Counted from the first letter of the stretch, positions 29,092 to 55,989 are shown. The stretch: 64,000 nucleotides of DNA from Nitrosopumilaceae archaeon (GCA_965207375.1 OZ242274.1:1920001-1984000); one strand, 5' to 3'. Notes: a model not told the origin generated them from the sequence alone. Translations and numbers: made by a program.

Positions 29092-29128
29092 GTTAAATTG
29101 GTTTACAGGTACCAATATGTAATTATTA

Positions 29129-29229
29129 CATCTAAGCAAAATGTGGCACAAATTCTTACCCCGCATCTGTTGCTCTGTTTGCATTTTGGAGTAGATTTTG
29201 ACCTATTTTGCCCACATTTCGCTTAGCTG
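29129..29229 (-). mobile_element. 101-bp MITE, copy 1
   Basis: Ends CATCTAAGCAAAATGTGG / CCACATTTCGCTTAGCTG; reverse complement aligns with 54686-54786 and 55681-55781. Confidence 0.9.
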
Positions 29230-29317
29230 TTGAGTAATTTCAATTTTAAGGGATCTGGATCACGCAGCAGAATCACAATTACAAATATTTTTAATCCACA
29301 ATTGCATATGTAAATAC

Positions 29318-29458
29318 ATGTCAAAGACAAAACAGATTGATTCTCCGCCACTTACAGAGGCAGAGATTGCAGATGTGGAATATTTTCGTGCCCATCCAGA
29401 AGAACATAAGGTCATGACACCTGAGGAATTTTTCAAAGAAATACATGACGGTGATTGA
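29318..29458 (+). CDS. 46-aa acidic putative antitoxin
   Basis: MSKTKQIDSPPLTEAEIADVEYF...TPEEFFKEI resembles 59394-59522 and precedes a RelE-like start. Confidence 0.65.
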   Translation: MSKTKQIDSPPLTEAEIADVEYFRAHPEEHKVMTPEEFFKEIHDGD

Positions 29459-29460
29459 AT

Positions 29461-29544
29461 ATGTGGAATCTAAAGATCAACGGCAGATTCTTTAAACAAT
29501 ACAAGAATTTAGATTTACAGATACAGCAAGTCAGAGTATTATGA
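29461..29544 (+). pseudogene. truncated RelE/ParE-like toxin N-terminus
   Basis: MWNLKINGRFFKQYKNLDLQIQ then a premature stop; aligns with W...KFIKQFANLDLTIQ of the 59.1-59.4 kb toxin. Confidence 0.65.
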
Positions 29545-29613
29545 CCATGCTAGTTTTCAAAGTACAAATGGATTTTGAGTTAATGCGTCAGTTCAAGCCG
29601 CCGCCAGGGTAGG

Positions 29614-29638
29614 ATTTTGCCCACATTTCGCTTAGCTG
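29614..29638 (-). mobile_element. isolated MITE end
   Basis: ATTTTGCCCACATTTCGCTTAGCTG, identical to 29205-29229. Confidence 0.88.
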
Positions 29639-29681
29639 TATTATGAATAACATTAATCTATAGGGTCCTCAAACCTAGAAT

Positions 29682-30191
29682 ATGCAGATATCACCCAAGC
29701 TAAAAAAACTGTTAAATGATCAAATTGCACTAGAGGCAAATGCATCAAGCTATTACATGTCAATGGCATCATGGTGCGAATTTACAGGATATGAGGGGGC
29801 TGCCGTATACTTTTACAACCAGTCAGACGAAGAAAGGCAGCACATGTTAAAAATTGTACACTTTCTCAATGCACGAGGAATTGCAGCAGAAATACCACAG
29901 GTCAAAAAATCACCTGCAGTCTTTAAATCTCTTGAAGAAATAATCAAGACTGCACTAAAAAACGAGCAGGCAGTAACTGTTGCAGTTACAAAAATGGTTG
30001 AACTAGCATCAAAAGAAAAAGATCACATAACCTTTACCTTTCTCCAATGGTTTGTAAACGAGCAAATGCATGAGGAAGAAAAGTTTGAAACGATACTTCA
30101 AAAGTTTGAATTAATTGGAAGAGACAAGCTTGCAATTAATGAAATAGACAAGATGTTAGGCAGTACACCCGTAGAGAGCACTGCACAATAA
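29682..30191 (+). CDS. ftnA: non-heme ferritin
   Basis: LNDQIALE, YMSMASW, QSDEERQHMLK, E-x-x-V, FLQWFVNEQMHEE ferroxidase pattern. Confidence 0.93.
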   Translation: MQISPKLKKLLNDQIALEANASSYYMSMASWCEFTGYEGAAVYFYNQSDEERQHMLKIVHFLNARGIAAEIPQVKKSPAVFKSLEEIIKTALKNEQAVTVAVTKMVELASKEKDHITFTFLQWFVNEQMHEEEKFETILQKFELIGRDKLAINEIDKMLGSTPVESTAQ

Positions 30192-30198
30192 AAGGCAA

Positions 30199-30747
30199 CT
30201 ATTTGTATCTAAAGCACTGCACAGTATGATCATTTACCATCCCTATTGCCTGCATCAAGGCATAGCAGATGGTCGGACCTACAAATGTAAATCCACGTTT
30301 TTTCAAATCCCGGCTTAGTTTGACTGAGACATCAGTAAAGGCAGGAATATCAGAGTGCTTTTTGCGTTTGTTGTGTACCGGAACATGGTTTACAAACTGC
30401 CACAGATAATTGTCAAAGGTTCCAAACTCTTTTTGCACTCTTAGAAATTGTTTTGCATTGTTTATTGCAGAGTTGATTTTTAGTTTGTTTCGTATGATTT
30501 GTTTATTTTGCAACAGCGCAGATACATCCTTGGAGGCGTATTTTGAAACTTTGAAAGGATTGAAATTGCAAAATGCATTTTTATATCCGTTTCTTCGTTT
30601 CAGAATGGTAGTCCAGGAGAGTCCTGCCTGGGCACCTTCTAAAATTAAAAACTCGAATAGTTTTTTGTCGTCATGTTGTGGAGTCCCCCATTCGTTGTCA
30701 TGATATGAAATGTTGGGTTCATCTTTTGCCCAAATGCATCGCTTCAT
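30199..30747 (-). CDS. tag: DNA-3-methyladenine glycosylase I
   Basis: RCIWA, YHDNEWG, LEGAQAGLSWTTILKRR, IIRNKLKI, FVGPTICYALMQAIGMVNDH. Confidence 0.95.
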   Translation of the reverse strand: MKRCIWAKDEPNISYHDNEWGTPQHDDKKLFEFLILEGAQAGLSWTTILKRRNGYKNAFCNFNPFKVSKYASKDVSALLQNKQIIRNKLKINSAINNAKQFLRVQKEFGTFDNYLWQFVNHVPVHNKRKKHSDIPAFTDVSVKLSRDLKKRGFTFVGPTICYALMQAIGMVNDHTVQCFRYK

Positions 30748-30781
30748 AAAACAATACATGAATATACAAATTTAAAATTTA

Positions 30782-31260
30782 GTAACATGTCAATTCTTTT
30801 GAATTAAGTTTAGTAAAATTATCTGGATTGTCCTCCACACCTGAAATTTTTTCTGTATATCTCATTTGTTTCAGTAGGGAACAAAAAGTTGGCCATTTTT
30901 CTAAATTTGTCAAATCGCATGATCCAAATGTATCATGACATGCATGTTCAAGAACATATGATGGGATAAACACATCAAAAATCAATTGTTCAGTATCTAT
31001 GTACAGTTTTAAAAGACTTTGGATTTTACTCATTGGAGCACAGGCTTTTGCTAGAACAATATTCTTTCTCAAAAAAAAAGTCAGAAGTGTATCTATTCGT
31101 GCATTAAATACCATAAATTCAAAATAACGTCAACAGATGCCAAAAATCATACACACTCAGCATTTTTCCCCGTATTCAAGACAAAATTCAGTATTTTGGT
31201 AAAACCAAGATGCGTCAAGAGTCAGCTCAGGCAGTTTTTGCAGCAAAACAATCAAAATAA
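30782..31260 (+). mobile_element. highly degenerate 5' remnant related to the SWIM/IS6-like element
   Basis: Shared upstream block in inverted orientation, followed by ATGATGGGA-TAA-ACACATCAAAAA (cf. MMGQTHQK). Boundaries approximate. Confidence 0.65.
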
Positions 31261-31305
31261 CACCTGTTGATAAACAATAAAAATCGCTAGTTATCTATAC
31301 ACAGT

Positions 31306-31437
31306 ATGATTTGTGCAGATTGTGAAAAACGCCTACATTTTCAGTGTATAGATTGTAAAAACGATCACAAGACATACCTGTGTAGTTGTGATTGCCATGA
31401 TGAGAACACAAAATCGCATAGCGAACAAGCTCATTGA
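31306..31437 (+). CDS. 43-aa Cys/His-rich metal-binding microprotein
   Basis: MICADCEKRLHFQCIDCKNDHKTYLCSCDCHDENTKSHSEQAH (manual). Confidence 0.6.
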   Translation: MICADCEKRLHFQCIDCKNDHKTYLCSCDCHDENTKSHSEQAH

Positions 31438-31550
31438 CTTTGAAATCTTTGTTGTAACCACTTACTGAATTTTTATTACTAAAAAACCCATCTATGATCT
31501 CAAGATAATATCAAGATTCATAAGTAAAAAAAATTGTCAAAGGGCGGTTT

Positions 31551-33272
31551 ATGGCAACTACTATGGACGACTTTGGAAGTTTGGAATACGTGCTTGACAG
31601 GTATTCAAAATCCTGGTGTTGGAAGATCACAGGAAATCGTGCAGTCAACATGATTTCAAAATTGATCCCTCAATCATGGTATGGTGAGGGCCCCGACGTA
31701 GTTATTGTTCCAGATACTTTGGAAAATGTAAACCACATAAAATGGATCAATGACAGATACCCATTTGAAATTCTCTCAAAAACTGCATGGCAGCGCAAAA
31801 TCATCAAAACCATAAAGCCCAAATACAAGATTCCCAAAATTCAAAAACTAATCGAGGCAAAGGCAGGAGAACAGTTCAAGGGGGAGTTGCTCAACTTTCA
31901 AAAGGAAGGTCTTGATTTTTTTATAAAATCCTCAGGCAATGCACTGTTAGCAGACGAGATGGGTCTTGGTAAAACAGTTCAGACGCTAGCCTATTTAGCT
32001 ACCGAAAAACAAACATTTCCCACATTAATTGTGTCCCCACTAGTTACCCTGAACAATTGGCAACGCGAAATAGAAAAATTTCTCAACAAAAAAAGTAAAA
32101 ATGGAAAAATAAACAGCTCCAAATCCCCATCATCTATAATTATCAGAACAGGTAAATCTTCCAAACTACCAGAGGTCGACTTTTACATTATCAATTACGA
32201 GTTGTTACACAAACGAATGAGCGACATATCCAAATTAGGAATTAGAGCAATAGTATGTGATGAGGTACATAATCTTCGTTCTAAAACCACCAAAAAATAT
32301 CATGCAATCAAAAAACTAGCCGCATTGTCTTCTGTAAAGTATAGAGTAGGCCTTTCTGGAACACCGATTTATAATCGTGGTTCTGAAATATGGCCAATTG
32401 TTGACATTTTAAGGCCGGGTTTGTTGGGAAATTTCAAGGAATTTTGCGAATATTTCTGCTATGTAAATGACAAGGGAAAGGCCATAGTGCTTGAAAATAG
32501 AAGAGAATCACTTCGTAATGAGCTACAAAAACATGTAATGTTGCGAAGAAAAAAATCCGACGTCCTAAAGGAGCTCAAAGATAAGGTCAGATACAAGGAG
32601 GTAATTGATGCAGATACCGATTACTATTTTACCGAACTAGACAAAATCTGGAAAAGGTTGGAGGAGGAACAAAAACAAGCAGAAACCGCATTTGACAAGT
32701 CTGCATCATATCAGCGTGCAATTAAAAGTGAACGCCAAATAGCAGGCGTTGCCAAACTTCCACATGTGATAAACTTTGTAAAAAACATCATGGAGATTGA
32801 GGAGAGTGTGGTTGTGTTTTGTCATCACCGTGCGATTCACACATTGCTTCATCAAAGCTTGGAAGAGTTCTCACCTGTGTCAGTAATTGGTGGGCAAAGT
32901 GATAAAGAAAGACAGAGAAATATCGATATGTTTCAAGCGGGTCAGTCAAAATTAATGATTGCAGGTCTGCGTGCAGGAAATGTTGGAATTAATCTGACTA
33001 GGGCAAAGTATGTTATATTTGCAGAGCTAGATTGGAGTCCTGCCATACACAGACAAGCAGAAGATCGTTTACACAGAATTGGACAAAAAAATACTGTATT
33101 TGCATACTATTTGATTGGAAATGGAACCCTCGATGATCATGTTGCAAATGTATTGGTCGATAAAAGTTATGAGATTGATGCTATCATGGATGAAAAAATA
33201 GAAACCTATGAAAACAAAGAAAAAGCAAAGCTTATCCTAGCACAAATTCACGACAAAATACGCAACAAGTAA
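31551..33272 (+). CDS. SNF2-family ATPase (SMARCAL1/HARP-like), copy 1
   Basis: LADEMGLGKT, DEVH, LSGTPIYN, LRRKK, VVFCHH, GNVGINLT, ELDWSPAIHRQAEDRLHRIGQ. Confidence 0.93.
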   Translation: MATTMDDFGSLEYVLDRYSKSWCWKITGNRAVNMISKLIPQSWYGEGPDVVIVPDTLENVNHIKWINDRYPFEILSKTAWQRKIIKTIKPKYKIPKIQKLIEAKAGEQFKGELLNFQKEGLDFFIKSSGNALLADEMGLGKTVQTLAYLATEKQTFPTLIVSPLVTLNNWQREIEKFLNKKSKNGKINSSKSPSSIIIRTGKSSKLPEVDFYIINYELLHKRMSDISKLGIRAIVCDEVHNLRSKTTKKYHAIKKLAALSSVKYRVGLSGTPIYNRGSEIWPIVDILRPGLLGNFKEFCEYFCYVNDKGKAIVLENRRESLRNELQKHVMLRRKKSDVLKELKDKVRYKEVIDADTDYYFTELDKIWKRLEEEQKQAETAFDKSASYQRAIKSERQIAGVAKLPHVINFVKNIMEIEESVVVFCHHRAIHTLLHQSLEEFSPVSVIGGQSDKERQRNIDMFQAGQSKLMIAGLRAGNVGINLTRAKYVIFAELDWSPAIHRQAEDRLHRIGQKNTVFAYYLIGNGTLDDHVANVLVDKSYEIDAIMDEKIETYENKEKAKLILAQIHDKIRNK

Positions 33273-33863
33273 TCACACAAGCAATCTTGCCCGTATCTCA
33301 TATAACAGCTTGATTATCTCCTCTTTGAGAGGTGCCTCCATGTCTGAGTTTTTTATCTTATAAGTCACATCAGATATCAGATGATGAATATCCCTGCCGT
33401 TTGTATCTGAATCTGTGCTACAATATTTGGGATTTAGTTGATCTGCTCCCCTTGGCAGTATCTCAAATACCTGCTGTATCACATCATGTTTTCTGACTGT
33501 TGTCATTAAAATGAGGTGGTCTTTGCGCAGTGTCTCAACTGTAAACATGACATCATCATGATTCTCATTGAGATATGTAGCAATCTCGACTCCAGTCATT
33601 GAACCAATATCAAGTACACGCAGTATCCTGATGCGCAATGGGTCAGAGCCCTTCCACAGTATCTGCCTTGCAGTCGCAGTAACCTGAAATGACCTGTCCT
33701 GATTCAGGCTAAGCAGTTTTCTTTCCACTAGCGAGGCTAGACAGTCTAAAAGCCGTCCGGTTCCTGCATCTTGCAATATTTCTAGCCGTTTTGCATCGAT
33801 GTTGCCATTGTTTTGAATTCCAAGTGCAAGGATCTTGAGATCATATAGTCCTATTTTATCCAT
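33273..33863 (-). CDS. tandem winged-HTH hypothetical protein
   Basis: Two wHTH-like segments (LDCLASLVERKLL...FQVTATA; RILRVL...MTGVEIATYL...VETLRKDHLI...FEILPRG). Confidence 0.65.
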   Translation of the reverse strand: MDKIGLYDLKILALGIQNNGNIDAKRLEILQDAGTGRLLDCLASLVERKLLSLNQDRSFQVTATARQILWKGSDPLRIRILRVLDIGSMTGVEIATYLNENHDDVMFTVETLRKDHLILMTTVRKHDVIQQVFEILPRGADQLNPKYCSTDSDTNGRDIHHLISDVTYKIKNSDMEAPLKEEIIKLLYEIRARLLV

Positions 33864-33976
33864 TAGAAAACGATGAAGACGCACAATATATGATGATTGG
33901 TAATTCACGACATGTTTAGTTTTGGCACACTAGACAGATCATAGGAACAAGTGATACATTTCTATCTGAGCGTATT

Positions 33977-35725
33977 CTACTCGTCGCCAAGCAGTCTCGG
34001 ATTTGATCTGAATTTTTCCTGCAAGAGTTCAAATGCCTTTTTGTTGTTGGTATCTTCTGCCTTGTCTCCAAGTACTCCCCTTATTGCAGCTCCCTTTGCA
34101 GTCAGCACATCGGCAATATACTCATCAAAGGTGTCCTCACCTATAACATAGTGTGAGAACACCCTGTTCTTCTGTCCTATGCGGTGCAATCTATCCTCTG
34201 CCTGTGCGTGTACCGCAGGAGACCAGTCAAGCTCTGCAAATATCACATATGCTGCCTCTGTAAGATTGATTCCAACGTTTCCTGCCCGCAGTCCGCAGAT
34301 TATGACACGGTGGTTTGGATCTGTCTGAAACAGATCTATGGCCTGCTGTCTTGTGGCATCTAGTTGACCACCGATTATCTGAAGAGGTCTGTATTTCCAC
34401 AGTCCATCAGCAATTATCTTGTGCACCCTTCTATGATGGCAAAAAACTACAAATTTTTCGTTGTTATAATCCTCCAACAATTCGTTGAGATAATCCACGA
34501 CATGTGTAGCCTTTGCAAGTCCTGCTAGTTGGCGCTCCTCGATTCGTAGCTCAAGCAAAAGTGAGTTAAACTCTGCAAGCTTGTGTTTTTTATCTGTATC
34601 ACCTTGGGCTTCATCTAGTCTCTTTTTTGCCCTATCTATCTTGAGATACATTTTCTTTATCTTCTCCTCGTACATGTCTCTATCTATAGGAATGGTCTGC
34701 TGAATTCTTGTTTTTTCTGGAAGGTCATCTAGCACATCCTTTTTTCTCCTTCGTATCATTAGATTTTTTTGTAGAAACTCTGAGAGTTCATCCTGTTTGA
34801 GATCAACGGTGCTATACATATCATCAAAATCATAAAACTTTTCTTTAAACTGTTCCTTGGTGCCAAATATGCCTGGTCGAAGCACCTCTGCTATCTCATA
34901 CATCTCCATGCCGTTGTTATATATCGGAGTTCCAGAAAGTCCTATACGATACACGATGGACTTGTGATGAACAAGATCCGTAGATGCGTGGATCTTGTAC
35001 GTGTTTGTACGTCGTATGTTCTGTATTTCATCAAAGACGACCGTCCTTGGATCTGTTGCTAAAATGTCACCTAGGCGCTTGTGTATAAGTTCATAATTTA
35101 TAAGATAAAAGTCAGCAGGTGCAAGAGCCGCTGCCTTACCTGACCGTATAACATTCACATGTGTGTCAACACGTCTGCCTGTAGTGTCAGTAAGTTTAAG
35201 GAATCGCGTTATCTCCCGCCTCCAATTCTCTAGTGTGACAATAGGTGCCACTATTACTGCAGGTATGCTATCTGGTCGCTGTGCCATAAACGCAAGCGTT
35301 TGAACGGTCTTGCCCAATCCCATCTCGTCTGCTACCAAAGCATTTCCATCAGTTTTTAAAAGAAAATCTAAACCGTATTTTTGAAACGGCATTAAAATTC
35401 CTGCAAAGTGTTTTGGATTCGGTGTAACAGGTGCAAGATGTGAAACAACATACTGTATGTGTTTGTCAGATTCCATTCCCATTAGCAATTCATACCACTT
35501 GTCCTTGCCTGCTATTTGTAGAGGGTACTCACTCATTACCATTTTAAGAAGCCGCACGTTCTCACTACTAGCTGCCACCGAAAAAGGATTTGAACCATAC
35601 ATAGGTATGAGGCGCGCAATGATGTCCTCGATCTCAGGTTCGGTCTTTATCTGTATCGTGTCTAGTTTTACATCGCGGCGCAATGCACTTTTCTTTATTA
35701 CCTCCAAGACACCATATGACTTCAT
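33977..35725 (-). CDS. SNF2-family ATPase, copy 2 (divergent paralog)
   Basis: VADEMGLGKT, DEIQ, LSGTPIYN, IRRRKK, GNVGINLT, ELDWSPAVHAQAEDRLHRIGQ. Confidence 0.93.
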   Translation of the reverse strand: MKSYGVLEVIKKSALRRDVKLDTIQIKTEPEIEDIIARLIPMYGSNPFSVAASSENVRLLKMVMSEYPLQIAGKDKWYELLMGMESDKHIQYVVSHLAPVTPNPKHFAGILMPFQKYGLDFLLKTDGNALVADEMGLGKTVQTLAFMAQRPDSIPAVIVAPIVTLENWRREITRFLKLTDTTGRRVDTHVNVIRSGKAAALAPADFYLINYELIHKRLGDILATDPRTVVFDEIQNIRRTNTYKIHASTDLVHHKSIVYRIGLSGTPIYNNGMEMYEIAEVLRPGIFGTKEQFKEKFYDFDDMYSTVDLKQDELSEFLQKNLMIRRRKKDVLDDLPEKTRIQQTIPIDRDMYEEKIKKMYLKIDRAKKRLDEAQGDTDKKHKLAEFNSLLLELRIEERQLAGLAKATHVVDYLNELLEDYNNEKFVVFCHHRRVHKIIADGLWKYRPLQIIGGQLDATRQQAIDLFQTDPNHRVIICGLRAGNVGINLTEAAYVIFAELDWSPAVHAQAEDRLHRIGQKNRVFSHYVIGEDTFDEYIADVLTAKGAAIRGVLGDKAEDTNNKKAFELLQEKFRSNPRLLGDE

Positions 35726-35880
35726 ATACAGACACTATCAAGGTAGGCTAAAACAATTACGGATGATCATACCATACAACAACCTGGATCACATGTCGAT
35801 CAGATAATATGTTTTGTAAACAGTGTACGATCATTTTCATACATAGAAAACTTCTAAAACCACATGCAAGCACTAGTTGT

Positions 35881-37572
35881 ATGAATCTTAATAGTCCACA
35901 TTTACAAAAAGTAAGAAGAAATGTAGGTGACACAGTATTTCATGAAGGTTATAATCTGTTTGTCAACCGACGTATAAGTGCAATATATGAGGAAGGCAAT
36001 GACCTAACTGCAAAGGTAAAAGACGAAAGAACTTACACCGTAAACATGTCGTTAAGAGACGGAACATATACTCAAACATGTACATGCTCCAAAAGATCGG
36101 AAATCTGCGAGCATGTGATGGCAGTACTGTTTTACGTATACGACAAAACCAAACCAAGGGACGTATCAAACTATACCTATGAGGAATTAGATGACAAATA
36201 TCTCAGTAGGAGGGCAGATGCATATGACCCCGCAGGATACAAGGGTTCATTGTTTGGAGACGTGGAAAAAGATGAAGATAGAGATATCATAGAGTCGCTA
36301 ATGTACAGCATAGGTGATTTCAACAAAAAGCCACCCAAGGTTCTAACTGAGATTGATGCCAAAACGCCGCCTGCACGCAAATGCAAGATTTTTTTGGATT
36401 ATCTGTATGAGGGTTCAAAGGGCAAAAGTGGTAAGATTCCAAACAAAAGCAGGGTGCCGTTTCACACAATTGGAACTCTTGCAACACAGTATGAAAGCCG
36501 TGGACAGCCAAAGAAGGTAATTGACGTATATCAATGCATGTGTGAATACATATCAAATAATATCGCCATAGTGAACGACGCAAAACAGCACTATACCAAA
36601 CAATTCCAACATTCAATTCGCCAGGCATTAGAATCCATACGTAAGACCAAGGCAAGTGACGATGAAAAACGGCATTATGCAAAATACTATTTTACGGCAT
36701 ATATCAATGAGAGAACACCGCGCTTTGCACACATGTATCTGTCTGCAATATACGACATCAGCAAGGATACAGAATATACCAAATACTGCATGTCCCTATT
36801 TGTCTCTGAGTTTGAAGATAAAAAGAAGGTAGGTGTAAAAAATACACGTCGCAGTAAAGATGAGCTTCTTGATGCCATCTGGCCACTTCTTGAAAGGCTC
36901 GGAGATAAACAGGTCAATGACTTTTTGGTAAAGCACCATATGGAAAGCGATGACATGTGTGTAAGACATATCTGGAACTTGGCAGATTCGAATCCAGATC
37001 AAGCAATGGATGTGGCCAAAAAGGCGATGCAAACATTTGCAGATCCAGAACGGTTCATTCGCATTCAAAGCTTTTTGCTAGAAGCAAATGATAATTCAGA
37101 GCATGAAGATTTGCTGCGCCAGCGGTTTGTCAGAACAACAAACTGGTCACACTATGAGATGTTAAAGGAAAAGGCAACCGATTGGGATGTACAGTTAAAA
37201 AAGATTCTCAAGGATCTCACGGATGATAATTGTACACATACGTGCATAGACATACTGCTACGCGAAAAGGGTGCAGATGAGGCATTCAAAGCAGCAATAG
37301 ATAGCAAGGATCTAGACATACTTGATGCTTACAAGTACGAATTTTCTTCAAAGTATCCAGACAAGTACTATACAGAGTATAAACGGCTAGTACCAAAACT
37401 AGCAGCGTCTGCCAACACAGCTCAAGACTTTGAAGATATTTTAAGACACATAGAGGTCATGAAACACATACCAGGATACGTTACAGAGACAGACAAACTT
37501 GTTGCCAAACTAGAGTACAAATATCCGCAGCTAGCAGAGCAGATGGAATCCATACCGATTCATGACAAGTAA
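35881..37572 (+). CDS. SWIM zinc-finger protein with a long alpha-helical region
   Basis: YTVNM...TCTCSKRSEICEHVMAVL (CxCxnCxH); start taken at ATG 35881. Confidence 0.85.
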   Translation: MNLNSPHLQKVRRNVGDTVFHEGYNLFVNRRISAIYEEGNDLTAKVKDERTYTVNMSLRDGTYTQTCTCSKRSEICEHVMAVLFYVYDKTKPRDVSNYTYEELDDKYLSRRADAYDPAGYKGSLFGDVEKDEDRDIIESLMYSIGDFNKKPPKVLTEIDAKTPPARKCKIFLDYLYEGSKGKSGKIPNKSRVPFHTIGTLATQYESRGQPKKVIDVYQCMCEYISNNIAIVNDAKQHYTKQFQHSIRQALESIRKTKASDDEKRHYAKYYFTAYINERTPRFAHMYLSAIYDISKDTEYTKYCMSLFVSEFEDKKKVGVKNTRRSKDELLDAIWPLLERLGDKQVNDFLVKHHMESDDMCVRHIWNLADSNPDQAMDVAKKAMQTFADPERFIRIQSFLLEANDNSEHEDLLRQRFVRTTNWSHYEMLKEKATDWDVQLKKILKDLTDDNCTHTCIDILLREKGADEAFKAAIDSKDLDILDAYKYEFSSKYPDKYYTEYKRLVPKLAASANTAQDFEDILRHIEVMKHIPGYVTETDKLVAKLEYKYPQLAEQMESIPIHDK

Positions 37573-37896
37573 TTTTCACATCTTGCATGTATTTTTGAAA
37601 CAAGATTTAGGAATTGTTCAAAGATTCACATGGTTTTGACATTATGGTTTTGGCCTGCAAGAGTGTTACTTTTTGAATGGCATAGTAGAGATATAGTTGA
37701 AATTTCAATACAGGTTCAAAATCTCAGCTAGATGCAGGTGAGGCACATTTTTGACATAGGGTTAAGAGGCTAGATTTACTGTTTTTTACATTTCAAATTC
37801 TAGGCATGACCCACGCAAACTCGTCATGCCCAGACCTAAACCTCTTACGCTAGACATTTAGTAACAGATTTTAAGTAGATATTTTAGATTCATGTA

Positions 37897-44870: not shown

Positions 44871-44871
44871 T

Positions 44872-45662: not shown

Positions 45663-45679
45663 TTGGTTAGGGATACACA

Positions 45680-46369: not shown

Positions 46370-46529
46370 CGTCGCCGGGTGCAGGCTCTTTTTTGATGTT
46401 TGAATCGTGTTGATTTTGCAATTCACCATGTTTTATCTTCTGATGCTGTCGTAACTGCTCAATGTCTGAAAACCCTTGATGACAAAGATAGCATTTAGGC
46501 TTGTCTTCATCAACTAGTGGCAACACCAT
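46356..46529 (-). CDS. 57-aa C2H2 zinc-finger protein
   Basis: MVLPLVDEDKPKCYLCHQGFSDIEQLRQHQKIKH...EPAPGDVTVF (manual). Confidence 0.75.
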   Translation of the reverse strand: MVLPLVDEDKPKCYLCHQGFSDIEQLRQHQKIKHGELQNQHDSNIKKEPAPGDVTVF

Positions 46530-46592
46530 GTTTGATGTTTCATTTGCCCGTATTTAAAATCAGACTACAACTTTAATTATATATTTGCTGTA

Positions 46593-47705: not shown

Positions 47706-47776
47706 TGCACGTGTCAAATTTATGCAAATCTTTTTGATTTAACGAGTTTTATAACACATGTTATTACGAGTCAAAG

Positions 47777-48061
47777 TTACATGCCCACATCTGGCTTTTT
47801 TTCCACTTTTTTGGGCCCTCCCTTTCTTTTCCTACGAGCTCCAAATGAGACCAAAACAAGTAAGAATCCCACTCCAATCAAAATGCCTGCAAGTGTATTC
47901 ATGTCCTCATTTTCTTGCTGTTTTAATAGAAGTTCCAAGGTCTCCTCTTCGGTCATTCCGGTAGTGCCAACAGGTACAGATGAACTAACGGATACAGATA
48001 AGGAAAATCCTACAACTAACATTGCTAGTCCTCCTGCTAAAATCCTCTTGTCAATTAACAC
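47777..48061 (-). CDS. two-TM membrane protein
   Basis: Two hydrophobic helices and a basic tail. Confidence 0.75.
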   Translation of the reverse strand: MLIDKRILAGGLAMLVVGFSLSVSVSSSVPVGTTGMTEEETLELLLKQQENEDMNTLAGILIGVGFLLVLVSFGARRKRKGGPKKVEKKPDVGM

Positions 48062-48169
48062 AAGATAATTTAAAATTGATTATATATAGAGTGTTTGTGG
48101 TGCAGTATGCCACAAATTCATCATATAACTGAGGCAGGCATTGTTGCAATGCAGTAGCAAAAAAATATT

Positions 48170-49327
48170 TTAAAAATAATCGGATAGTGTTTTTTGTTTT
48201 AGGAGCCTAGATATGCTGCCGTGTGCAAGCCATTTCTGTTTACTAGTGTTTAGCTTGGCACATGCAAATCGAAGAGCATGATCAAAGCTGTCTAAAATTT
48301 GAGGGGTTTGTTTCATTGCAAGTCTAATTCCCTCTCTGACCTGCCATACACCTACCGGAATTGCATATTCGGGTTGAATTTCTCGTAAAATCAAGACACC
48401 TGCCTGCATTTTTTGTTTGACCAGATATTCTACAACCCCAAGCTTTGCGGCAAAAAATGCACCAGCAGTAACCGGAGGATGATCAATGCCTCTAGCATCC
48501 TCATAATCAGAGCCAAATCCAAGCGTACCATTAGAATACCAGGCCTCAATCAGCTCATATATCCACAGGCGTGGTAACAAAATCACAGAAAACAAATTAC
48601 CCAAATGAGAAAATTGGAATACTCTGTAATGATCAATTACAGAGAAATTCAAAACTTCTTTCATCAAAGAATCTGAGATTATACCATCAGTTGCAGTAAT
48701 ACTCCATCTGGTGGGAACAAGTTTTCTTTTTTTACCCATCATTCCAATACTAAAGCATTTTTGTATTTTTGAAATCTCAATTCCAGAATTATATAGTTTC
48801 AAAACTGCGTCTTTTGCTTTTAGATCCGTATCATAGTATACCTTTTCGATGTAATGTTCAGATGTTGTTCCCGAATAATTGGCAGATTTTATTTCTCCAA
48901 TTGGTCCAAATGGTGCACTTTGGCCATCAAGGGATACTGCAGGTGAGGTTGCTTTGGTAAATTGTAATTCAGAATCAATGGGTTTAGACGCCATTGCCAC
49001 TTCTTGCAAATCTTCAATATATCTTCCATGGGGATTATCTACGGATATTTTTTGTGTTCCTCTGACCAAGTTTAATCTGTAATTTACTATTTCCTCAAGG
49101 CTTTTACCAATCCATTTTTCTGGTGTGTCAAGTAATGCGGTATCACCATGTATGGGTGGAACCATCGGTCCTGCTAATACCTTGGGATAGCTATACGATC
49201 CAACAAAAACAGATGGAGGGCTAGTACCGTTTATGTTATCTGAAGAAAAAAGATTTCCATATTTGGATAAATTATCACGCCATTTTGTCTCAATTGCAAT
49301 TCTAATGTCACGGGCATTTTGAGGCAT
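48170..49327 (-). CDS. nreA: Nre-family DNA repair protein
   Basis: GTSPPSVFVG...YPKV, LVPTRWSITATD, PVGVWQVRE; C-terminal PIP box QKTLSDYF. Confidence 0.92.
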   Translation of the reverse strand: MPQNARDIRIAIETKWRDNLSKYGNLFSSDNINGTSPPSVFVGSYSYPKVLAGPMVPPIHGDTALLDTPEKWIGKSLEEIVNYRLNLVRGTQKISVDNPHGRYIEDLQEVAMASKPIDSELQFTKATSPAVSLDGQSAPFGPIGEIKSANYSGTTSEHYIEKVYYDTDLKAKDAVLKLYNSGIEISKIQKCFSIGMMGKKRKLVPTRWSITATDGIISDSLMKEVLNFSVIDHYRVFQFSHLGNLFSVILLPRLWIYELIEAWYSNGTLGFGSDYEDARGIDHPPVTAGAFFAAKLGVVEYLVKQKMQAGVLILREIQPEYAIPVGVWQVREGIRLAMKQTPQILDSFDHALRFACAKLNTSKQKWLAHGSISRLLKQKTLSDYF

Positions 49328-49815
49328 GATTAAGGATAATTTCTGATGCTATTAACTTGCAGGGTTTACGATTCTTCAGCATCATCACTCATATGAAAAA
49401 TCCCTCGGCTACGTGCCAGATCCTATACAGTGAGCATTTGCAGATCAGGTCATCTTTACGAGATACATATTCAGGTCGCCTCTGATTTTATGCTTAGTTT
49501 TTGAACATACAGGAAAATTTTGTGCTTGAAAAATTTACGATCAGAGTTTGTCCAATTGCAAGTGTCAACGTCGCGCCTGAATTAATTCTATTTTTTGAAA
49601 TTTCATGTCTAAATTATCATAAATTCAAAACATTAACAGATACAATAAATTCAAGGTATTAATTAAACAATCTTACATTATTTTTATTGAATCATTTAAT
49701 TATCTATATCGTTTCATGATATCTGTGAAAGCATTATCTCTAGTTTTCATGGTATCTGCCGCGTGTAGATGCTACATTAGGAACCCCCCCCCGTACATTA
49801 CACTGTATAGTTTTC

Positions 49816-51831
49816 ATGGCAGCTGCCACAGGATTGTTATTATTTACACCGACTTTAGCAGATGCCCATTCTCCAACTGATGATGAATTTTTATGCAAAA
49901 GTGACAAATTGATGGCGCAGTTTGGAGCGGAACTGACCCATCCCCTTAATCCAGATGGTACAATAGACTACACTGCCTTCATTTTGTCAGGAGGACATCA
50001 AGGTCAACTTGGTGTTTACACCGACGCTGATGGTATAACCTACACATGCATTAATTATTTTGACAGTGCATTACAGTTTTACAGGGAATTACGAGTACAA
50101 TATAACGGACGTACAGACACATACATTACACCACCTGGCCAAAATTACCATGACGGAATAGAACGAATTGACATTTTCCATCATAATGGCTCTCTAAAAC
50201 AATCTATACTATATGAGGCAAAAACCATTCTAGGTGTTGAAGATGAAGACGATCCAAATAGTAACCCAAATCAAGGCGTGTTTATGAAACTAGAACATCA
50301 TGAAGATGGCACACTCAAAGAAATAATCAATCTTGAGGACGGTGAATCTCCAAGTGAAATAAAATTCAAAGAGGGCGGAAATATTGCAACAGAAGTTATC
50401 AAACGTGACTTGAAGGCAGAAAACACCACAAGGACAGATGAAAACGGTAATTTCCTATTACCTCAAAATAAAACCACATGGCATGATAACGGAATCCAAA
50501 AGAGTTATTATGAAATATTTCCAGACGGTAAAGACTTGAGTATCGAGTGGAATGAACGTGGAACTATGACCAAATATGTCAAAACATATTCCAATGATGT
50601 GGTGTATGTTTTACTAGAAACATCTCATGCGAATTTCATAAGCGCTCAAAATATTGCAGATATTTCAAAACCTGCCCTTGTGGCTGTTGTACGTGATGAC
50701 CTTAGAAGGTATTACTCAATTATTGATGTGGATACCCAGAGAGCAGCTATACACGGGAATATTAGGAATTTTGTAGAAGGTCACCTTCATGATTTGAATC
50801 ATGTACATCTTACCCATAATATAAACACGGTAACCGCTGCAATTGCAAATGGCATTTATAATGCGATTGTTATTACAGAAGCAGACAATAATCGTGGCAA
50901 AAACTATGTTGCTAGTCTTGCAGATGGTTTTGTAAGTACAGGAATTGCAAATATTGATGATAATGCCAGACTTAATCAACTCTTGACTCTGCATGACCAT
51001 ACAAACATTGACGGATTGGGTCACGTCACTTACCTCATATACGGCATAAATATGCAGACCCAATTATACCATGACGGCTCTACAGGTACTGAACTATGTT
51101 ATTCTGAAAATAGAGCAGCTATAACATGCACTGATGATTCTAGGGCAGAATATTTTGAATTTCTAGAGCGTATGATTCCAAGAACAGGCGGCAGCACTCA
51201 TGACACGGCATCTGCAAAATATGACCGTAACTTGAGTAACGAGATAACACCAGAGTTGTTAATTGCTGTACCAGGTTATGTAGATACATCTTTACTCAAT
51301 GAAGTAAGATATACAAAATCGCTATTGGAACACGGTAAATCAATAGCAAATGGCCCTAATGATCATGAGACTTGGAACAAGGTACTAGCAGCATTTGGAC
51401 ATTTGGATCAAGGCAAAATGACAGCAGCTGAAGCCCAAGTCAATGCTGATACATACGGAGGCCCATTATGGTCAAGAATTGCAGCAGCAATTAGCGAGTT
51501 AGAATCAGATACACCTGCAGGCATTAACGCAGAATCAATAGAACAGCAACCTATACCGGATTCAATACCTGATTCTATACAAGATACACAAGTTAAGCCT
51601 GAACCAGCAATAGACCCAGAACTAATTGAGGATGTAAAGTACCTTGCATCTATGACACATCACGGTGAGCAGCACGTTGAGCGATGGAACAGGGTTTTGG
51701 CAGCATTTGGGATTTTACAACATGATAACCCAATTACAGCTGCCGAGGCTGAAGCAAATTCAAAGAAATATTCTAGTCCACTCTGGCCTAAAATTGCAGA
51801 GGTTTTGAAAGTAATAGAGAATGCCAGCTAA
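49816..51831 (+). CDS. large secreted protein with MORN-like repeats and a duplicated C-terminal helical module
   Basis: Signal-like start; HHNGSLKQ/HEDGTLKE/HDNGIQKS/WNERG repeats; two WN(K/R)VLAAFG...TAAEA...PLW units. Confidence 0.8.
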   Translation: MAAATGLLLFTPTLADAHSPTDDEFLCKSDKLMAQFGAELTHPLNPDGTIDYTAFILSGGHQGQLGVYTDADGITYTCINYFDSALQFYRELRVQYNGRTDTYITPPGQNYHDGIERIDIFHHNGSLKQSILYEAKTILGVEDEDDPNSNPNQGVFMKLEHHEDGTLKEIINLEDGESPSEIKFKEGGNIATEVIKRDLKAENTTRTDENGNFLLPQNKTTWHDNGIQKSYYEIFPDGKDLSIEWNERGTMTKYVKTYSNDVVYVLLETSHANFISAQNIADISKPALVAVVRDDLRRYYSIIDVDTQRAAIHGNIRNFVEGHLHDLNHVHLTHNINTVTAAIANGIYNAIVITEADNNRGKNYVASLADGFVSTGIANIDDNARLNQLLTLHDHTNIDGLGHVTYLIYGINMQTQLYHDGSTGTELCYSENRAAITCTDDSRAEYFEFLERMIPRTGGSTHDTASAKYDRNLSNEITPELLIAVPGYVDTSLLNEVRYTKSLLEHGKSIANGPNDHETWNKVLAAFGHLDQGKMTAAEAQVNADTYGGPLWSRIAAAISELESDTPAGINAESIEQQPIPDSIPDSIQDTQVKPEPAIDPELIEDVKYLASMTHHGEQHVERWNRVLAAFGILQHDNPITAAEAEANSKKYSSPLWPKIAEVLKVIENAS

Positions 51832-52395
51832 CAAGCAATCAATGAATTTTTAAAAATCAAGGTTTACGTAAAACATACTGTATCGTCAAACTCTAGACAT
51901 GGCATTAACAATTACAAAAAGAATAACATTTCAGAATACATCTGATCAAAAATCATTCAAAAACACGTTTGCATCATATATTAAAAACAGGGATCTTAGT
52001 GTACACATCATATGGAATTAAAGACTGCATTCCTTGATTTTGAGGATATGCCACCTGAGATACAAGAGTGGTAAAGACCGAACTTGACAACGAATCTGCA
52101 ACAGGATTAGAACAAATACTTGACATAATTTACATGCAAATATACACAATTGCAACAGTGTGTCACCTCTAGCATTTATCGACTAGATGGTTTGTTTCCC
52201 AATCTCGATTTTGTGTGTGAATATTTGTTACTAAAATCTTAACGGCTAGGCAGCACGACAGGTTTTTACTCTTTTATGATGTTTATGTCCAAAACATCAT
52301 TAATTTCAAATCAGCATAGTTGTCTAATTTGTGCCACTAGACTATTTTGAGAAAATATCAGATAGAACTATGCACGGCATATACTATAATTATAA

Positions 52396-53334
52396 TTGAA
52401 AACAATACAAAAACAATTGCAAAGAATTGTATCTTTTCTACCAAGTGCTACGGAATTAATTTACGCACTAAAAGTGCAAGATATGCTACTAGGAGTAACA
52501 CACCAATGTCAGTATCCAAAAGATGCAAAATTCAAACCTAAAATCATCGATACCGTAATAGACTCGAAAAATTTGAACAGTCATCAAATTGACGAAATCA
52601 CATGCAAGATGTTCAAAGACGGAAAAGACATCTTTGTTTTAAATAAAAAAAATATCAAAAAAGCAAATCCAAATCTGATAATATCACAAAACACATGCAG
52701 TGTCTGTGCAGCTCATACTAGTCAGGTTCAACAGGCAATAAAAATACTAGATGTAAAACCAGAGATTTATTCAATGGATCCTCACAATGTAAAAGAAATA
52801 CTTGAAGGAATAATTGAGATCTCAGAAATATTAAAAATAAAAGAAAGAGGTACTGTACTCAAAAAAGAATTAGAGTGTAGAATCAAAAATGTTAAAAAAG
52901 TAAAAATTCAAAACAGGCCAAAAATTGTCGCAATAGAATGGATTGAACCACTTTTTACTGCAGGGCATTGGATTCCTGAAATGATCGAGATTGCAGGAGG
53001 TACAAATCTCATAAGCAGTGCAAAAGAACATTCACAAATGATTAGCATACAAGATATACTACAGGCAAATCCAGAAATCATTGTTTTGATGCCTTGTGGG
53101 TTTGATGTGAAAAAAACAAAATCAGAGTATGAAAGATTCCTAAAAAACGATATACGATGGAATAGACTTGAAGCAGTAAAAAACGGCAAAGTGTTTGCAA
53201 CAGATGCCAATTCATTTTTTAGCAAACCAAGCATTAGAACCATACAAGGAATAGAGATTCTAGCAAAAATCATACACCCAAAAGAATTTGCAGTAACATC
53301 TGTGCCAAAAAATTCCTATACTAAACTAGGCTAG
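52396..53334 (+). CDS. BtuF/TroA-like cobalamin/Fe-complex binding protein
   Basis: RIVSFLPSATE, GVTHQC, EWIEPLFTAGHWIPEMIEIAGG, FSKPSIR. Confidence 0.85.
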   Translation: MKTIQKQLQRIVSFLPSATELIYALKVQDMLLGVTHQCQYPKDAKFKPKIIDTVIDSKNLNSHQIDEITCKMFKDGKDIFVLNKKNIKKANPNLIISQNTCSVCAAHTSQVQQAIKILDVKPEIYSMDPHNVKEILEGIIEISEILKIKERGTVLKKELECRIKNVKKVKIQNRPKIVAIEWIEPLFTAGHWIPEMIEIAGGTNLISSAKEHSQMISIQDILQANPEIIVLMPCGFDVKKTKSEYERFLKNDIRWNRLEAVKNGKVFATDANSFFSKPSIRTIQGIEILAKIIHPKEFAVTSVPKNSYTKLG

Positions 53335-53505
53335 GTCTATCGCTCTTGAGTTTCGTCAAGATCATCGACTTCGTAAGTTTTACGATTTGGCCTAGTAGGG
53401 ATGTAAATAACTGTCAATATTTACAGTGCTTGTAAATCACACATATGGAACTTGGTTGGAAAAAGTTTGCCTTTTTGGTAATTATATTATAGTTGCAGAT
53501 AAAAG

Positions 53506-53979
53506 CTAAAATTTACACTCAGTTTTTAGCGATTTTATCGTAGTCCAGTAGGTAAAACAAAGAATTCCGATTGCAGTTATTCTAATCGGCATTTCATAAT
53601 TGGTCAAAAAGGCAGAGGTGGTAGCACCTACGGCTCCAAATGTGGAGATCACTGCAAATCCGATTGGTCCACAACTGCATGCACCTGCGGCTGCACCAAT
53701 AATAGAGCCGAAAATACCTCCGCCTATTTTTCTAGACGAGCTATGAAGCATTTTGATTCTGTACAAGTTTAGAGACATTACCAATCCAGACAAGGCAGAC
53801 AGAATTACAATCAAGGAGAATCCAAACTCTGTATTTGTTGGCAGATGTGCTACCACATAAGGCTCCAAGAAGACATACTCTGAAATAATCAAAAGAGGAA
53901 TCAAAAGTCCAACAAAAATCACTGTTGCTAAAATTACAAACAGTGGATTTGAAAATACTAGTTTTAAAACAGATTCCAT
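53506..53979 (-). CDS. four-TM membrane protein with CSC motif
   Basis: Hydrophobic helices and GACSCGP; adjacent to the DsbA gene. Confidence 0.75.
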   Translation of the reverse strand: MESVLKLVFSNPLFVILATVIFVGLLIPLLIISEYVFLEPYVVAHLPTNTEFGFSLIVILSALSGLVMSLNLYRIKMLHSSSRKIGGGIFGSIIGAAAGACSCGPIGFAVISTFGAVGATTSAFLTNYEMPIRITAIGILCFTYWTTIKSLKTECKF

Positions 53980-54642
53980 TTAGATCATCGAATCTAATAC
54001 CTGTTGAAATACAGAATACGGTTGTGCTCCAATTATTTTTTGTTGACTCTCAGATCCTACTATGACAAACGTAGGCGTTGCATTTGCACCTTCCTTTGTG
54101 GCCTCTACCATATTGAATTGTACACGTTTTGAGTATTTTCCAGAATCAAGGCAGCTGTTAAACAGTTCCATATCTAGTCCAAGAGAAAACGCAAAAGCTT
54201 TGAGTCGTTCAGTATTTGCCCAACCACCATCAATTTGTGATTCTTGATTGTTGTAAAGGATCTCATGGTATTGCCAATACATTCCTTGATCTTCTGCACA
54301 ATACGTTGCCTGTGCAGCTTTTGGAGAATCTCGTCCTAAAAATGCAAGGTCGACAAAAATGAGATTTGCTTTTCCAGATTCAATGTAATTGTCTTTGATT
54401 AGGGGTTTGGTATTATGAAACCAATTATAACATTGATGACATTGATAATCACCAAATTCAACTATTGTAACAGGGGCATCAAGGTTGCCCAAGATTGGCG
54501 AGCCCATAGCAGTGGATATAGTTCCGTGTTGTCTTTGCATGTCAAGATTGATACTTTCAGGGTCAGACATCAAGGCAGAGACAGCTATTCCTGTCACGAT
54601 TGCAATGACAATACTGCCTACAATTACTCCTTTCTTGCTCAT
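53980..54642 (-). CDS. DsbA-family thioredoxin-fold oxidoreductase
   Basis: N-terminal TM, APVTIVEFGDYQCHQC, ATPTF, GAQPYSVF. Confidence 0.92.
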   Translation of the reverse strand: MSKKGVIVGSIVIAIVTGIAVSALMSDPESINLDMQRQHGTISTAMGSPILGNLDAPVTIVEFGDYQCHQCYNWFHNTKPLIKDNYIESGKANLIFVDLAFLGRDSPKAAQATYCAEDQGMYWQYHEILYNNQESQIDGGWANTERLKAFAFSLGLDMELFNSCLDSGKYSKRVQFNMVEATKEGANATPTFVIVGSESQQKIIGAQPYSVFQQVLDSMI

Positions 54643-54685
54643 GTATGGTAGATTTCAAATGGCTTTAAAAAATTTATTCCAAATA

Positions 54686-54786
54686 CAGCTAAGCGAAATG
54701 CGGGTAAAATAGGCCAAAATCTACTCCAAAATGCAAACAGAACAATAGGGACTGGGTAAGAGTTTGGATCACATTTTGCTTAACTG
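54686..54786 (+). mobile_element. 101-bp MITE, copy 2
   Basis: CAGCTAAGCGAAATGCGG...TCACATTTTGCTTAACTG. Confidence 0.88.
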
Positions 54787-54998
54787 ACTAGTTCATTTAG
54801 AATAGATAATCTACAAGTCTGTTTTGCTGATGTGCCTGTTCCATCATTTGAAAGATAATGGAACATTACATCATGTATGTTTTAGATATGGAGACAGAAA
54901 TTAGATCAGCAGGTACAAATTTCTTGGTAAGCAAATGGTGGTATGTAACTAGGTTAAAGCTTCAAAAAGCCAAACAATTACAAATATTAGGTAAAATG

Positions 54999-55072
54999 TG
55001 GACCCGACGGGATTTGAACCCGTGACCTATTGATTTTCAAACAATCGCTCTACCAAGCTGAACCACAGGCCC
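54999..55072 (-). tRNA. atypical tRNA-like gene, anticodon GAA (functional status uncertain)
   Basis: GGGCCTG/CGGGTCC-A acceptor; D arm GTTC-AGCTTGGTA-GAGC; anticodon arm ATTGT-TTGAAAA-TCAAT; perfect T arm ACGGG-TTCAAAT-CCCGT. Confidence 0.75.
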
Positions 55073-55152
55073 ACAAAGATTTTATACTTTATACACGTAA
55101 TAATGTTGATTTTCAAACAATAAAGGCTGAATGCTGAACTAGCCTGTTTTTT

Positions 55153-55434
55153 TTAATTTCCGTCTATGATTCTAAGCTCATTCCATTTTAGATCAATAGC
55201 AGCATTACCTCTATAATCCCATAAATCCTCACCGTTGATAATTAGGGTAATTTCACCTGTCTCTCCTGGCTTTAATTTCTCAAAGTTTATTGTGTGATTC
55301 ATAGGTAGGTCATAGATTAATTCTAAATCCTGTATTATATTTCTGTCATCCTCGTTCCTTGCCTCAATGATAACCTCTAATGTCTCCTTGTCATGAATGT
55401 CTAGCCTAAGTTCATCTAACGGTTTACCACCTAG
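55153..55434 (-). pseudogene. start-less 93-codon open frame (beta-sandwich-like fragment)
   Basis: LGGKPLDELRLD...LKPGETGEITLII...IDGN*, preceded by an in-frame TAA. Confidence 0.5.
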
Positions 55435-55630
55435 TTAGGGGGTCAAGACCTTTGATTTGGCATAGTTTTACTTTCATCTGATTATTCTATGTGTCTGGAT
55501 TGATTTTAGTGCCTTATTCGTTTTGTCTTCTGTACTGCCTGCACTGGTTTATTTTGGCTTTGCAAAGATGGTCTTGTGTTGTTTTACCTTTGTGCGTTTT
55601 TGTATGACATTGCATCTACCTTGACATAAT

Positions 55631-55676
55631 CAGTAGGTAGAAATTCACCCACTATCGTGCATTTGCATCGTACGGC
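55631..55676 (-). mobile_element. remnant of an ISH3 right end
   Basis: CAGTAGGTAGAAATTCACCCACTAT resembles the reverse complement of 22483-22507 (CAGTAGATGGAAATTCACCCACTAT). Confidence 0.75.
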
Positions 55677-55680
55677 ATTT

Positions 55681-55781
55681 CATCTAAACGAAATGTGGGT
55701 AAAATAGGCCAAAATATATTCTAAAATGCAAAGAGAATAATAGTGGAGGGATAAGAATTTGGGCCACATTTTGCTTAGCTG
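55681..55781 (+). mobile_element. 101-bp MITE, copy 3
   Basis: CATCTAAACGAAATGTGG...CCACATTTTGCTTAGCTG. Confidence 0.88.
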
Positions 55782-55989
55782 AAATATGGGCAAGTCAAAC
55801 ACTCCAAATTTTAGATCATAGGAAGGTTTGGATAGATACAAAAAGTAACTATACCTTATAACTCTAACAGTGTGCTAGCACGTAAAAGATGTCATGGTCG
55901 TTTTGTCTTGTATTGCTTGAATTTTGATTGACATAAAGATTCAAGATTTAGATGTCAAGACTTGGCAATCTGGTGTAAAAAAACCAAGG

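Follow-up and report, generated by a model that had tools for sequence, protein, structure and literature searches.

The DNA considered here is a 64,000-nt stretch from a Nitrosopumilaceae archaeon (the window; G000:C1:1920001-1984000, where C1 is the archaeal chromosome contig), and it contains two compact gene-bearing units bounded by short mobile elements. Unit 1 (29129-29638) lies between a methyltransferase and a ferritin gene and encloses an antitoxin-like open reading frame (ORF) and the stub of a toxin gene, while unit 2 (54686-55781) lies upstream of a DsbA-like gene and encloses a tRNA gene. Three of the four boundaries are formed by copies of a 101-bp MITE (miniature inverted-repeat transposable element), and the fourth is a remnant of an insertion sequence that we call IS-A; a second, ISH3-like lineage in the window is called IS-C. 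Both units are flanked by a 5-bp direct repeat at their outer ends, whereas the three MITEs agree in their own flanks at only 1, 1, and 2 of 5 bases. Four further units were found elsewhere on C1. In Table 1, "window" coordinates are counted along the 64,000-nt stretch and "C1" coordinates are positions on the chromosome contig.

Table 1. Boundary elements, duplications and cargo of units 1 to 6, and the related insertion sequences
Feature	Location	Strand	Remarks
Unit 1, left TATTA duplication copy	window 29124-29128		
Unit 1, left-boundary MITE, 101 bp	window 29129-29229	-	inverted relative to the right-boundary IS-A remnant; own flanks TATTA and TTGAG, 1/5 alike
Unit 1, antitoxin-like ORF, 46 aa (cargo)	window 29318-29458	+	paralog in unit 6 (C1 1617411-1617551) upstream of an intact 87-aa ParE/RelE-like ORF
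Unit 1, ParE/RelE-like toxin stub, first 23 codons	window 29461-29529	+	cut off at the junction with the IS-A remnant
Unit 1, IS-A remnant, 119 bp (right boundary)	window 29520-29638	+	92% identical to IS-A 1129-1247; transposase 3' end and right terminus
Unit 1, right TATTA duplication copy	window 29639-29643		homology with relative G004 resumes at 29642
Unit 2, left AAATA duplication copy	window 54681-54685		end of promoter block ...TTCCAAAT[A/G/T] kept in four relatives
Unit 2, left-boundary MITE	window 54686-54786	+	own flanks AAATA and ACTAG
Unit 2, copy of ~205-bp dispersed repeat	window 54788-54990		first ~8 bases missing where it abuts the MITE
Unit 2, tRNA gene, anticodon GAA (cargo)	window 54998-55072	-	63.2 bits on the Rfam tRNA model
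Unit 2, IS-C terminal fragment, ~52 bp	window 55629-55680	+	cut by the right-hand MITE, not continued past it
Unit 2, right-boundary MITE	window 55681-55781	+	own flanks CATTT and AAATA
Unit 2, right AAATA duplication copy	window 55782-55786		
Unit 3	C1 382393-383554		TGCAA; pair of MITEs, direct orientation; small ORFs, no family match
Unit 4	C1 2015864-2016987		ATATG; pair of MITEs, direct orientation; small ORFs, no family match
Unit 5	C1 1453025-1455632		TTGAC; 75-bp MITE remnant and intact IS-A as boundaries
Unit 6	C1 1617267-1617931		ATAAT / ATGAT, 4/5 match; encloses an intact toxin-antitoxin pair
IS-A, full-length copies	C1 554147-555395, 751907-753153, 888888-890134, 1454384-1455632, 2111126-2112372		95-100% identical to one another
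IS-C, frameshifted ISH3-like copy	window 21322-22507	+	transposase ~31% identical to that of IS-A

The boundary repeats have the attributes of MITEs: they are 101 bp long (<500 bp), non-coding and present in many copies, and the first 18 nt of their two ends are near-identical and inverted. The copies in the window are 83-87% identical in pairwise comparison, with the first inverted relative to the other two. BLASTN with these three copies gave 180 matches, all on C1 and none on contigs C2, C3, and C4, which merge into 69 intervals comprising 38 full-length MITEs (30 single and 8 within units) as well as fragments. Judging by a mean pairwise identity of 0.77 among 40 near-complete copies, most copies of the family appear to be old.

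Of these matches, seven ended at position 65-69 and several others spanned only 74-101. Both blocks are found at the ends of IS-A, a 1247-bp ISH3-like insertion sequence that has the same termini as the MITE and whose full-length copies lie outside the window. Bases 1-69 are equivalent in the two elements, and bases 74-101 of the MITE align with 1220-1247 of IS-A; on this alignment the MITE is an internal-deletion derivative of IS-A. Moreover, both ends of IS-A begin with 18 nt that match CAGCTAAGCGAAATGTGG exactly, the terminus that was used for locating MITE ends. Besides the five full-length copies, C1 carries one interrupted copy and several fragments. The 350-aa transposase ORF is uninterrupted in four of the five, with a frameshift in the copy at 2111126, and the copies at 554147 and in unit 5 do not differ over 1251 bp (100% identity), which indicates that the IS-A family has moved recently. 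Perfect 5-bp repeats flank the copies at 554147, 751907, 888888, and 1059781 (three full-length copies plus the interrupted one); of the remaining two full-length copies, one is located within unit 5 and the other, at 2111126, has no repeat.

The IS-A ORF matches the Pfam domain DDE_Tnp_1, and its best family match is the NCBIfam ISH3 profile NF033541 (E = 8.5e-36, 123.6 bits, profile positions 2-298 of 298), a score that is below the equivalog cut-off of 225 and ~100 bits above the next family, IS4, at 25 bits. Members of the ISH3 family are 1225-1500 bp in length, with one transposase ORF, direct repeats of 4-5 bp (typically 5), CRGT termini, and a Y-(2)-R-(3)-E transposase motif without the full YREK (De Palmenaer et al. 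2008, PMC2266710). IS-A resembles the family as described there in its length, single ORF, archaeal host, and 5-bp direct repeats. Its termini, CAGC, fit CRGT in the first three bases but have C, not T, as the fourth, and the putative motif read off its transposase, EYASRWGIESGYGKIEE, is Y-2-R-3-E as in ISH3, with E rather than K at position +7 after the E (PMC2266710). IS-A differs from the ISH3 family in scoring under the NCBI cut-off and in its protein, to which nothing from outside this genome is more than 62% identical in the collection searched; a distant homolog of the transposase, at 39% identity, carries the label Cenarchaeum. A DNA search for IS-A in 40 relatives returned only distant matches (65-84%), mostly in G004 and G019, and no MITE copies. 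A 2019 survey of thaumarchaeal mobile elements gives ISH3 for one species, i.e., 1 of 21 genomes (PMC6563490).

Searching for CAGCTAAGCGAAATGTGG with ≤4 mismatches located 122 termini on C1; the other contigs contributed 13, all of them weak. When opposed termini with ≤3 mismatches and 60-6000 bp apart were paired and the 5 bases outside each were compared, identical outer 5-mers were observed in 16 of 58 pairs, while displacing the flanks by 5 to 20 bp in eight controls yielded 0, 0, 0, 0, 0, 0, 2, and 0 matches among 58. Within this list, perfect 5-bp repeats occur in 7 of 31 pairs that are single MITEs, in 4 of 8 pairs of insertion-sequence type, and in 5 of 19 pairs whose ends belong to two different elements. 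Since two random 5-mers of C1 match with p = 0.0015, ~0.03 matches would be expected among these 19. There is no excess at longer range (0/17, 0/109, and 4/1999, with 2-6 in controls for the last). Five units, numbered 1 to 5, have a perfect 5-bp direct repeat at their outer ends only, and not one of the 8 full-length MITEs within units has a perfect repeat of its own. In units 1-5 and in unit 6 alike, outward-facing opposed termini bracket unrelated DNA, as is characteristic of composite elements.

Could the outer repeats be accidental? MITEs may have inserted independently and in place around resident genes, with the outer 5-mers agreeing by coincidence in AT-rich DNA, and it suits such a scenario that the duplications are short and rich in A and T (~80% of bases in 18 duplications, which show no clear target motif beyond this) and that most single MITEs have no duplication anyway. 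It is opposed by the five perfect repeats among 19 candidate pairs, by the absence of the cargo, and not just of the MITEs, from relatives at four syntenic sites, and by the inner junctions of unit 2, which truncate repeats whose remainders are missing on the outer side. We regard coincidence as scarcely credible and already close to refuted.

For the 46-aa antitoxin-like ORF of unit 1, no family match above threshold was obtained in Pfam and NCBIfam searches, and the full-length paralog of the toxin stub (87 aa, in unit 6) matches Pfam ParE_toxin only weakly (E = 0.0014, 19.6 bits, cut-off 23). The stub and the IS-A remnant share the 10-bp stretch GATACAGCAA at their junction (29520-29529), and this microhomology suggests that the junction arose by a microhomology-mediated (illegitimate) deletion and not as a transposition end. 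In G004 the methyltransferase and ferritin genes are adjacent, with neither MITE nor cargo between them, and homology reaches back to 4 bp past unit 1. Assembled contigs from three public runs of one study, probably of the source sample, bridge both outer junctions without differences (window 28300-30400). None of the contigs joins across the unit to give an allele without it; contigs cannot show rare variants, so this is uninformative on polymorphism. The single joint reported for these contigs, from 29164 to 29275, fits the paralogous unit 6 locus and not an empty allele of unit 1.

In unit 2, both inner junctions cut other repeats, namely, the ~205-bp dispersed repeat on the left and the end of IS-C on the right, and the missing parts are absent on the outer sides of the MITEs: beyond the right-hand MITE, the third in the window, only 5-14 of 40 bases match them. 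It follows that the MITEs of unit 2 did not insert where they are now located. No IS-C copy cut at the matching position, which would mark a donor site, was found. The DsbA neighborhood is kept without unit 2 in six relatives (G001, G002, G004, G006, G007, and G013), and in G002, G004, G006, and G007 the left border of the unit coincides exactly with the end of the promoter block (TTCCAAAT plus A, G, or T). Neither the exact 39-nt left flank of the unit nor a degenerate 28-nt MITE terminus had a match in metagenome contigs, and the terminus had none in species-representative genomes, a collection that may omit the window's own genome. The cargo tRNA, which differs from the canonical tRNA-Phe at window 1024-1100, belongs to a five-copy, AT-rich, tRNA-bearing repeat family (other copies at C1 1341225, 1355322, 1407365, and 1444064) with 200-500 bp of shared flanks, and another mobile element may in turn carry this family. 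A 49-aa ORF without a family match is likewise part of the unit.

A sequence-only reading of this stretch had described much of this anatomy. The three MITE copies, the TATTA and AAATA repeats, and the disagreement of the MITEs' own flanks are all found as described there. It had also held that unit 2 has intact outer and mutated inner ends; the outer ends differ from CAGCTAAGCGAAATGTGG at one position each and the inner ends at 3 and 2. The trend is not general, being opposite in unit 1 (2 mismatches at the outer left end, 0 at the inner end). A "lone end" at 29614-29638 does exist, but as the tip of the 119-bp IS-A remnant.

As a separate observation, the distance to the downstream start codon is exactly 43 bp both for unit 1 (ferritin gene) and for unit 2 (DsbA-like gene). 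In addition, their outer flanks (29639-29650 and 54674-54685) are alike when one is inverted (TATTATGAATAA versus TATTTGGAATAA, 10/12), which may reflect a shared promoter feature or a target preference.

Units 4 to 6 extend the pattern outside the window. Unit 4 is not present at the syntenic site in G001, G002, G004, G006, and G007. Unit 5 contains an intact gene for a 386-aa Fic-domain protein (Fic_N 4e-21, Fic 2.7e-19); its neighborhood is not syntenic in relatives, and its flanks contain repeated domains. At the site of unit 6, the intergenic spacers are 97-147 bp in G004, G006, and G007 versus 1780 bp here. Units 1 and 5 have their two boundary elements in opposite orientations, and units 2, 3, and 4 have their MITEs in direct orientation. 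The MITEs of a pair are 83% identical in unit 2 and 73% in unit 4, over ~100 bp.

We consider it likely, from the structure of these loci, that the units are the product of composite transposition mobilized in trans by the ISH3-like IS-A. The IS-A transposase would recognize the near-identical terminal inverted repeats of 18-25 bp and insert whatever segment lies between two opposed ends, presumably by DDE cut-and-paste, with a 5-bp duplication of the target. Where the outward-facing ends of two nearby elements are used, be it two MITEs, a MITE and an IS-A remnant, or a MITE remnant and a whole IS-A, the entire segment would move as a composite transposon, so that the inner junctions travel with the unit and the new duplication appears at the outer ends only. 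That the units likely moved as wholes is indicated by four lines of evidence: the repeats have the length that single MITEs and IS-A generate in this genome, the boundaries of units 1 and 5 are inverted, the inner junctions of unit 2 cut repeats whose remainders are not found outside, and relatives with conserved gene order lack units 1, 2, 4, and 6.

These results bear out the central proposal of the sequence-only reading, that the duplications belong to the composite units and not to their member MITEs, and the genome-wide flank table that it had suggested lists perfect repeats for 9 of the 30 single MITEs and for 4 of the 8 end pairs of insertion-sequence type. The autonomous element with the same terminal repeats that it had called for exists in IS-A. 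Mobilization in trans by an ISH3-like transposase is retained with IS-A as the probable source, but the ISH3-like element in the window is not the partner. By its sequence IS-C belongs to a different lineage and is not part of the MITE system; it is probably the source of the "ISH3 right end" that had been compared with the MITE. The composite part of the proposed "Pack-MITE-like gene-shuttling" is supported, but "Pack-MITE" is a loose term for it, and repeated shuttling would be an extrapolation, since no unit occurs in two places.

A different order of events could leave similar traces. A single MITE or insertion sequence may have inserted first, with its 5-bp duplication, and the interior may have been enlarged later with the outer duplication kept, for example, when a circle of MITE and cargo recombined into a resident MITE, in the manner of IS26 translocatable units, or by ectopic gene conversion. 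The direct orientation of the MITEs in units 2, 3, and 4 is what the circle route requires, but the inverted boundaries of units 1 and 5 exclude circle integration by homologous recombination there, and they are irrelevant to a transposase that needs only termini. With their low identity over so short a length, the MITE pairs of units 2 and 4 would also be poor substrates for homologous recombination. Nor is there a genome-wide excess of recombination-type flank exchange: inversion-type flank matches number 10/2811 versus 3-12 in controls, and the 4/1999 given above are the long-range reciprocal direct-type matches. Later enlargement, also as a route for some of the units, is therefore unlikely in our view, although unit 3 would fit it. 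Unit 3 has two MITEs with 98% identity that are mutual nearest relatives among the 40 copies, and it lies at an inversion breakpoint (C1 380393-385554), with its flanking genes adjacent in G001, G004, G005, and G007 and the right-hand one in the opposite orientation. An origin by duplication or recombination would fit unit 3 equally well.

Several further observations also weigh against composite transposition. No whole unit is found at two loci; each is single copy in this genome and only parts of the cargo recur, so that we infer a single move of each unit from structure alone. Over 248 bp, the cargo loci of units 1 and 6 have 95% identity, yet the MITEs next to them only 83%. The exact empty site with a single 5-mer, which the sequence-only reading had predicted, was not recovered in relatives, as these are only ~70-75% identical in genes and their intergenic DNA and right flanks are unalignable; the cargo is nevertheless not at the same loci in G004 (unit 1) and in six relatives (unit 2). 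Given the age of most MITE copies, the composite events themselves may be ancient. Finally, only 2 of the remaining 21 single full-length MITEs have a 4-of-5 match, and the flanks of the other 19 agree at 0-3 of 5 bases, no better than chance. Target-site duplications of MITEs are described as decaying in older copies (PMC10969869), but matches this low are unlike the expected decay of an old duplication, and neither direct-type nor inversion-type flank matches on C1 give a recombination signature that explains them. Processes besides clean transposition thus also shape MITE flanks, and a missing duplication on a single copy is weak evidence on its own.

The units may alternatively be relics of larger elements, such as integrated plasmids, viruses, or other transposons, in which MITEs accumulated and whose 5-mers stem from the other element. 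In comparison with five relatives, unit 4 is contained in a 1.44-kb insertion (C1 ~2015571-2017027) bounded by the 9-bp direct repeat TTTTTTTGA; past unit 6 there are another ~1.1 kb of repeats, without a counterpart in G004, G006, and G007; and unit 2 has a mosaic cargo made up of other repeat families. However, the 5-bp repeats abut the MITE and IS-A termini exactly, and their length is the one that single MITEs and IS-A produce. The 5-bp and 9-bp repeats at unit 4 are moreover distinct and nested, which suggests that unit 4 entered an earlier insertion of a different kind. There is no paralogous empty site for this unit, its flanks of 284 bp and 26 bp within the larger insertion being unique in the genome. 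An origin from such relics is in our view very improbable, and even when it is combined with coincidence the two remain an improbable account of the units.

For two cargo families, the toxin-antitoxin pair and a 466-bp repeat in unit 4, both loci have a MITE of like orientation a short distance upstream. The gaps between MITE and cargo are 0 versus 45 bp for the toxin-antitoxin pair (C1 1617367/1617368 and window 29230-29274) and 74 versus 149 bp for the 466-bp repeat (C1 1377686-1377761 and C1 2015962-2016112), and the MITEs are 83-85% identical. In the paralog of the unit 4 cargo at C1 1377761, the stretch between MITE and cargo has no homology to that in unit 4. A shared composite ancestor of units 1 and 6 was considered and rejected: the differences between their MITEs are evenly spread and not mosaic, and 45 bp lie between MITE and cargo in unit 1 only.

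In relation to known systems, the units are composite transposons of two MITEs or of a MITE and an insertion sequence or its remnant, and not Pack-MITEs. Plant Pack-MITEs and Pack-MULEs consist of one terminal-repeat pair around captured gene fragments, belong to the Mutator superfamily, and generate 9-bp duplications. The units described here are like Pack-MITEs in being non-autonomous elements with host-derived sequence, but they comprise two separate elements each (with four termini in units 2-4), have a 5-bp duplication, and are matched by an ISH3-like transposase with DDE_Tnp_1. A closer parallel is provided by bacteria, in which class 1 integrons of Acinetobacter have been found between identical MITEs and copies of MITE-297 around a 76-kb region (PMC10969869, PMC6382973). 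In those composites, as here, two miniature non-autonomous elements bracket unrelated DNA, and a related insertion sequence elsewhere is the presumed source of the transposase. The units differ from the published bacterial examples in their archaeal host, the ISH3-like elements involved, and MITEs of 101 bp instead of 439-502 bp; in addition, the pairs are mostly diverged (73-83%) rather than identical, a MITE is combined with an insertion sequence or its remnant in two units, and instead of resistance integrons the units carry a toxin-antitoxin pair, a Fic gene, a tRNA gene, and small ORFs (PMC10969869, PMC6382973). As in Tn5 with its two IS50 copies, the outer ends of the flanking elements would act together and the duplication is found only outside the whole unit, but unlike in Tn5, the boundary elements of four of the five units encode no transposase, the exception being unit 5 with its intact insertion sequence (PMC10969869). 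For these four, mobilization must be in trans.

MITE-bounded composites are thus already established in bacteria, and by analogy the units would work like those and like composites bounded by insertion sequences; the understanding of how composite transposons work is unchanged. In the open-access full-text literature, we found no report of MITEs in ammonia-oxidizing archaea or of MITE-bounded composites in archaea, and the word MITE does not occur in the text of the 2019 thaumarchaeal survey, whose supplements may list more (PMC6563490). What the units would add is a purely genomic, well-controlled case in which paired miniature elements can relocate archaeal genes, including an intact Fic gene and a toxin-antitoxin pair. 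They also add an undescribed ISH3-like insertion sequence and a MITE family to a lineage in which ISH3 is on record from 1 of 21 surveyed genomes (PMC6563490). For annotation, the "tRNA-Phe" and the small ORFs inside the units would be passengers of mobile DNA and not core genes, and for the evolution of symbiont genomes the units would represent a route of internal gene shuffling that needs neither plasmid nor virus.

More tentatively, MITE pairs and hybrids of MITE and insertion sequence may form a working gene-moving system in this host-associated ammonia-oxidizing archaeon, the first archaeal composites with miniature boundaries and a main route by which accessory genes are relocated in a small symbiont chromosome. 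We put this forward as a possibility that we would sooner doubt than assert. If it is correct, the MITEs upstream of the two cargo families would reflect gene families prone to capture, and not chance.

The other contigs of the assembly, C2, C3, and C4 (2.14 Mb), have a different character, with stop-free stretches of ≥100 codons covering 22-30% of them versus 85% of C1. They contain long CA/GT-type microsatellites and just 14 tRNA genes, and both the MITE and IS-A are absent from them; from this composition they look eukaryotic and are probably host DNA within the assembly.

The chromosome also harbors at least three further ISH3-like transposase lineages in several copies each, 27-38% identical to IS-A (C1 259878-260954, 1906126-1907202, 2135057-2136133, and 2155216-2156292; 626832-627884, 1428734-1429786, and 1678655-1679707). 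Adjoining IS-C in the window (19804-21213 and 20601-21304) is a 469-aa ORF with zinc-ribbon-like Cys pairs, which may encode the transposase of another insertion sequence. Its first ~700 bp recur at ≥7 places on C1 with 90-100% identity, some of them at 100%.

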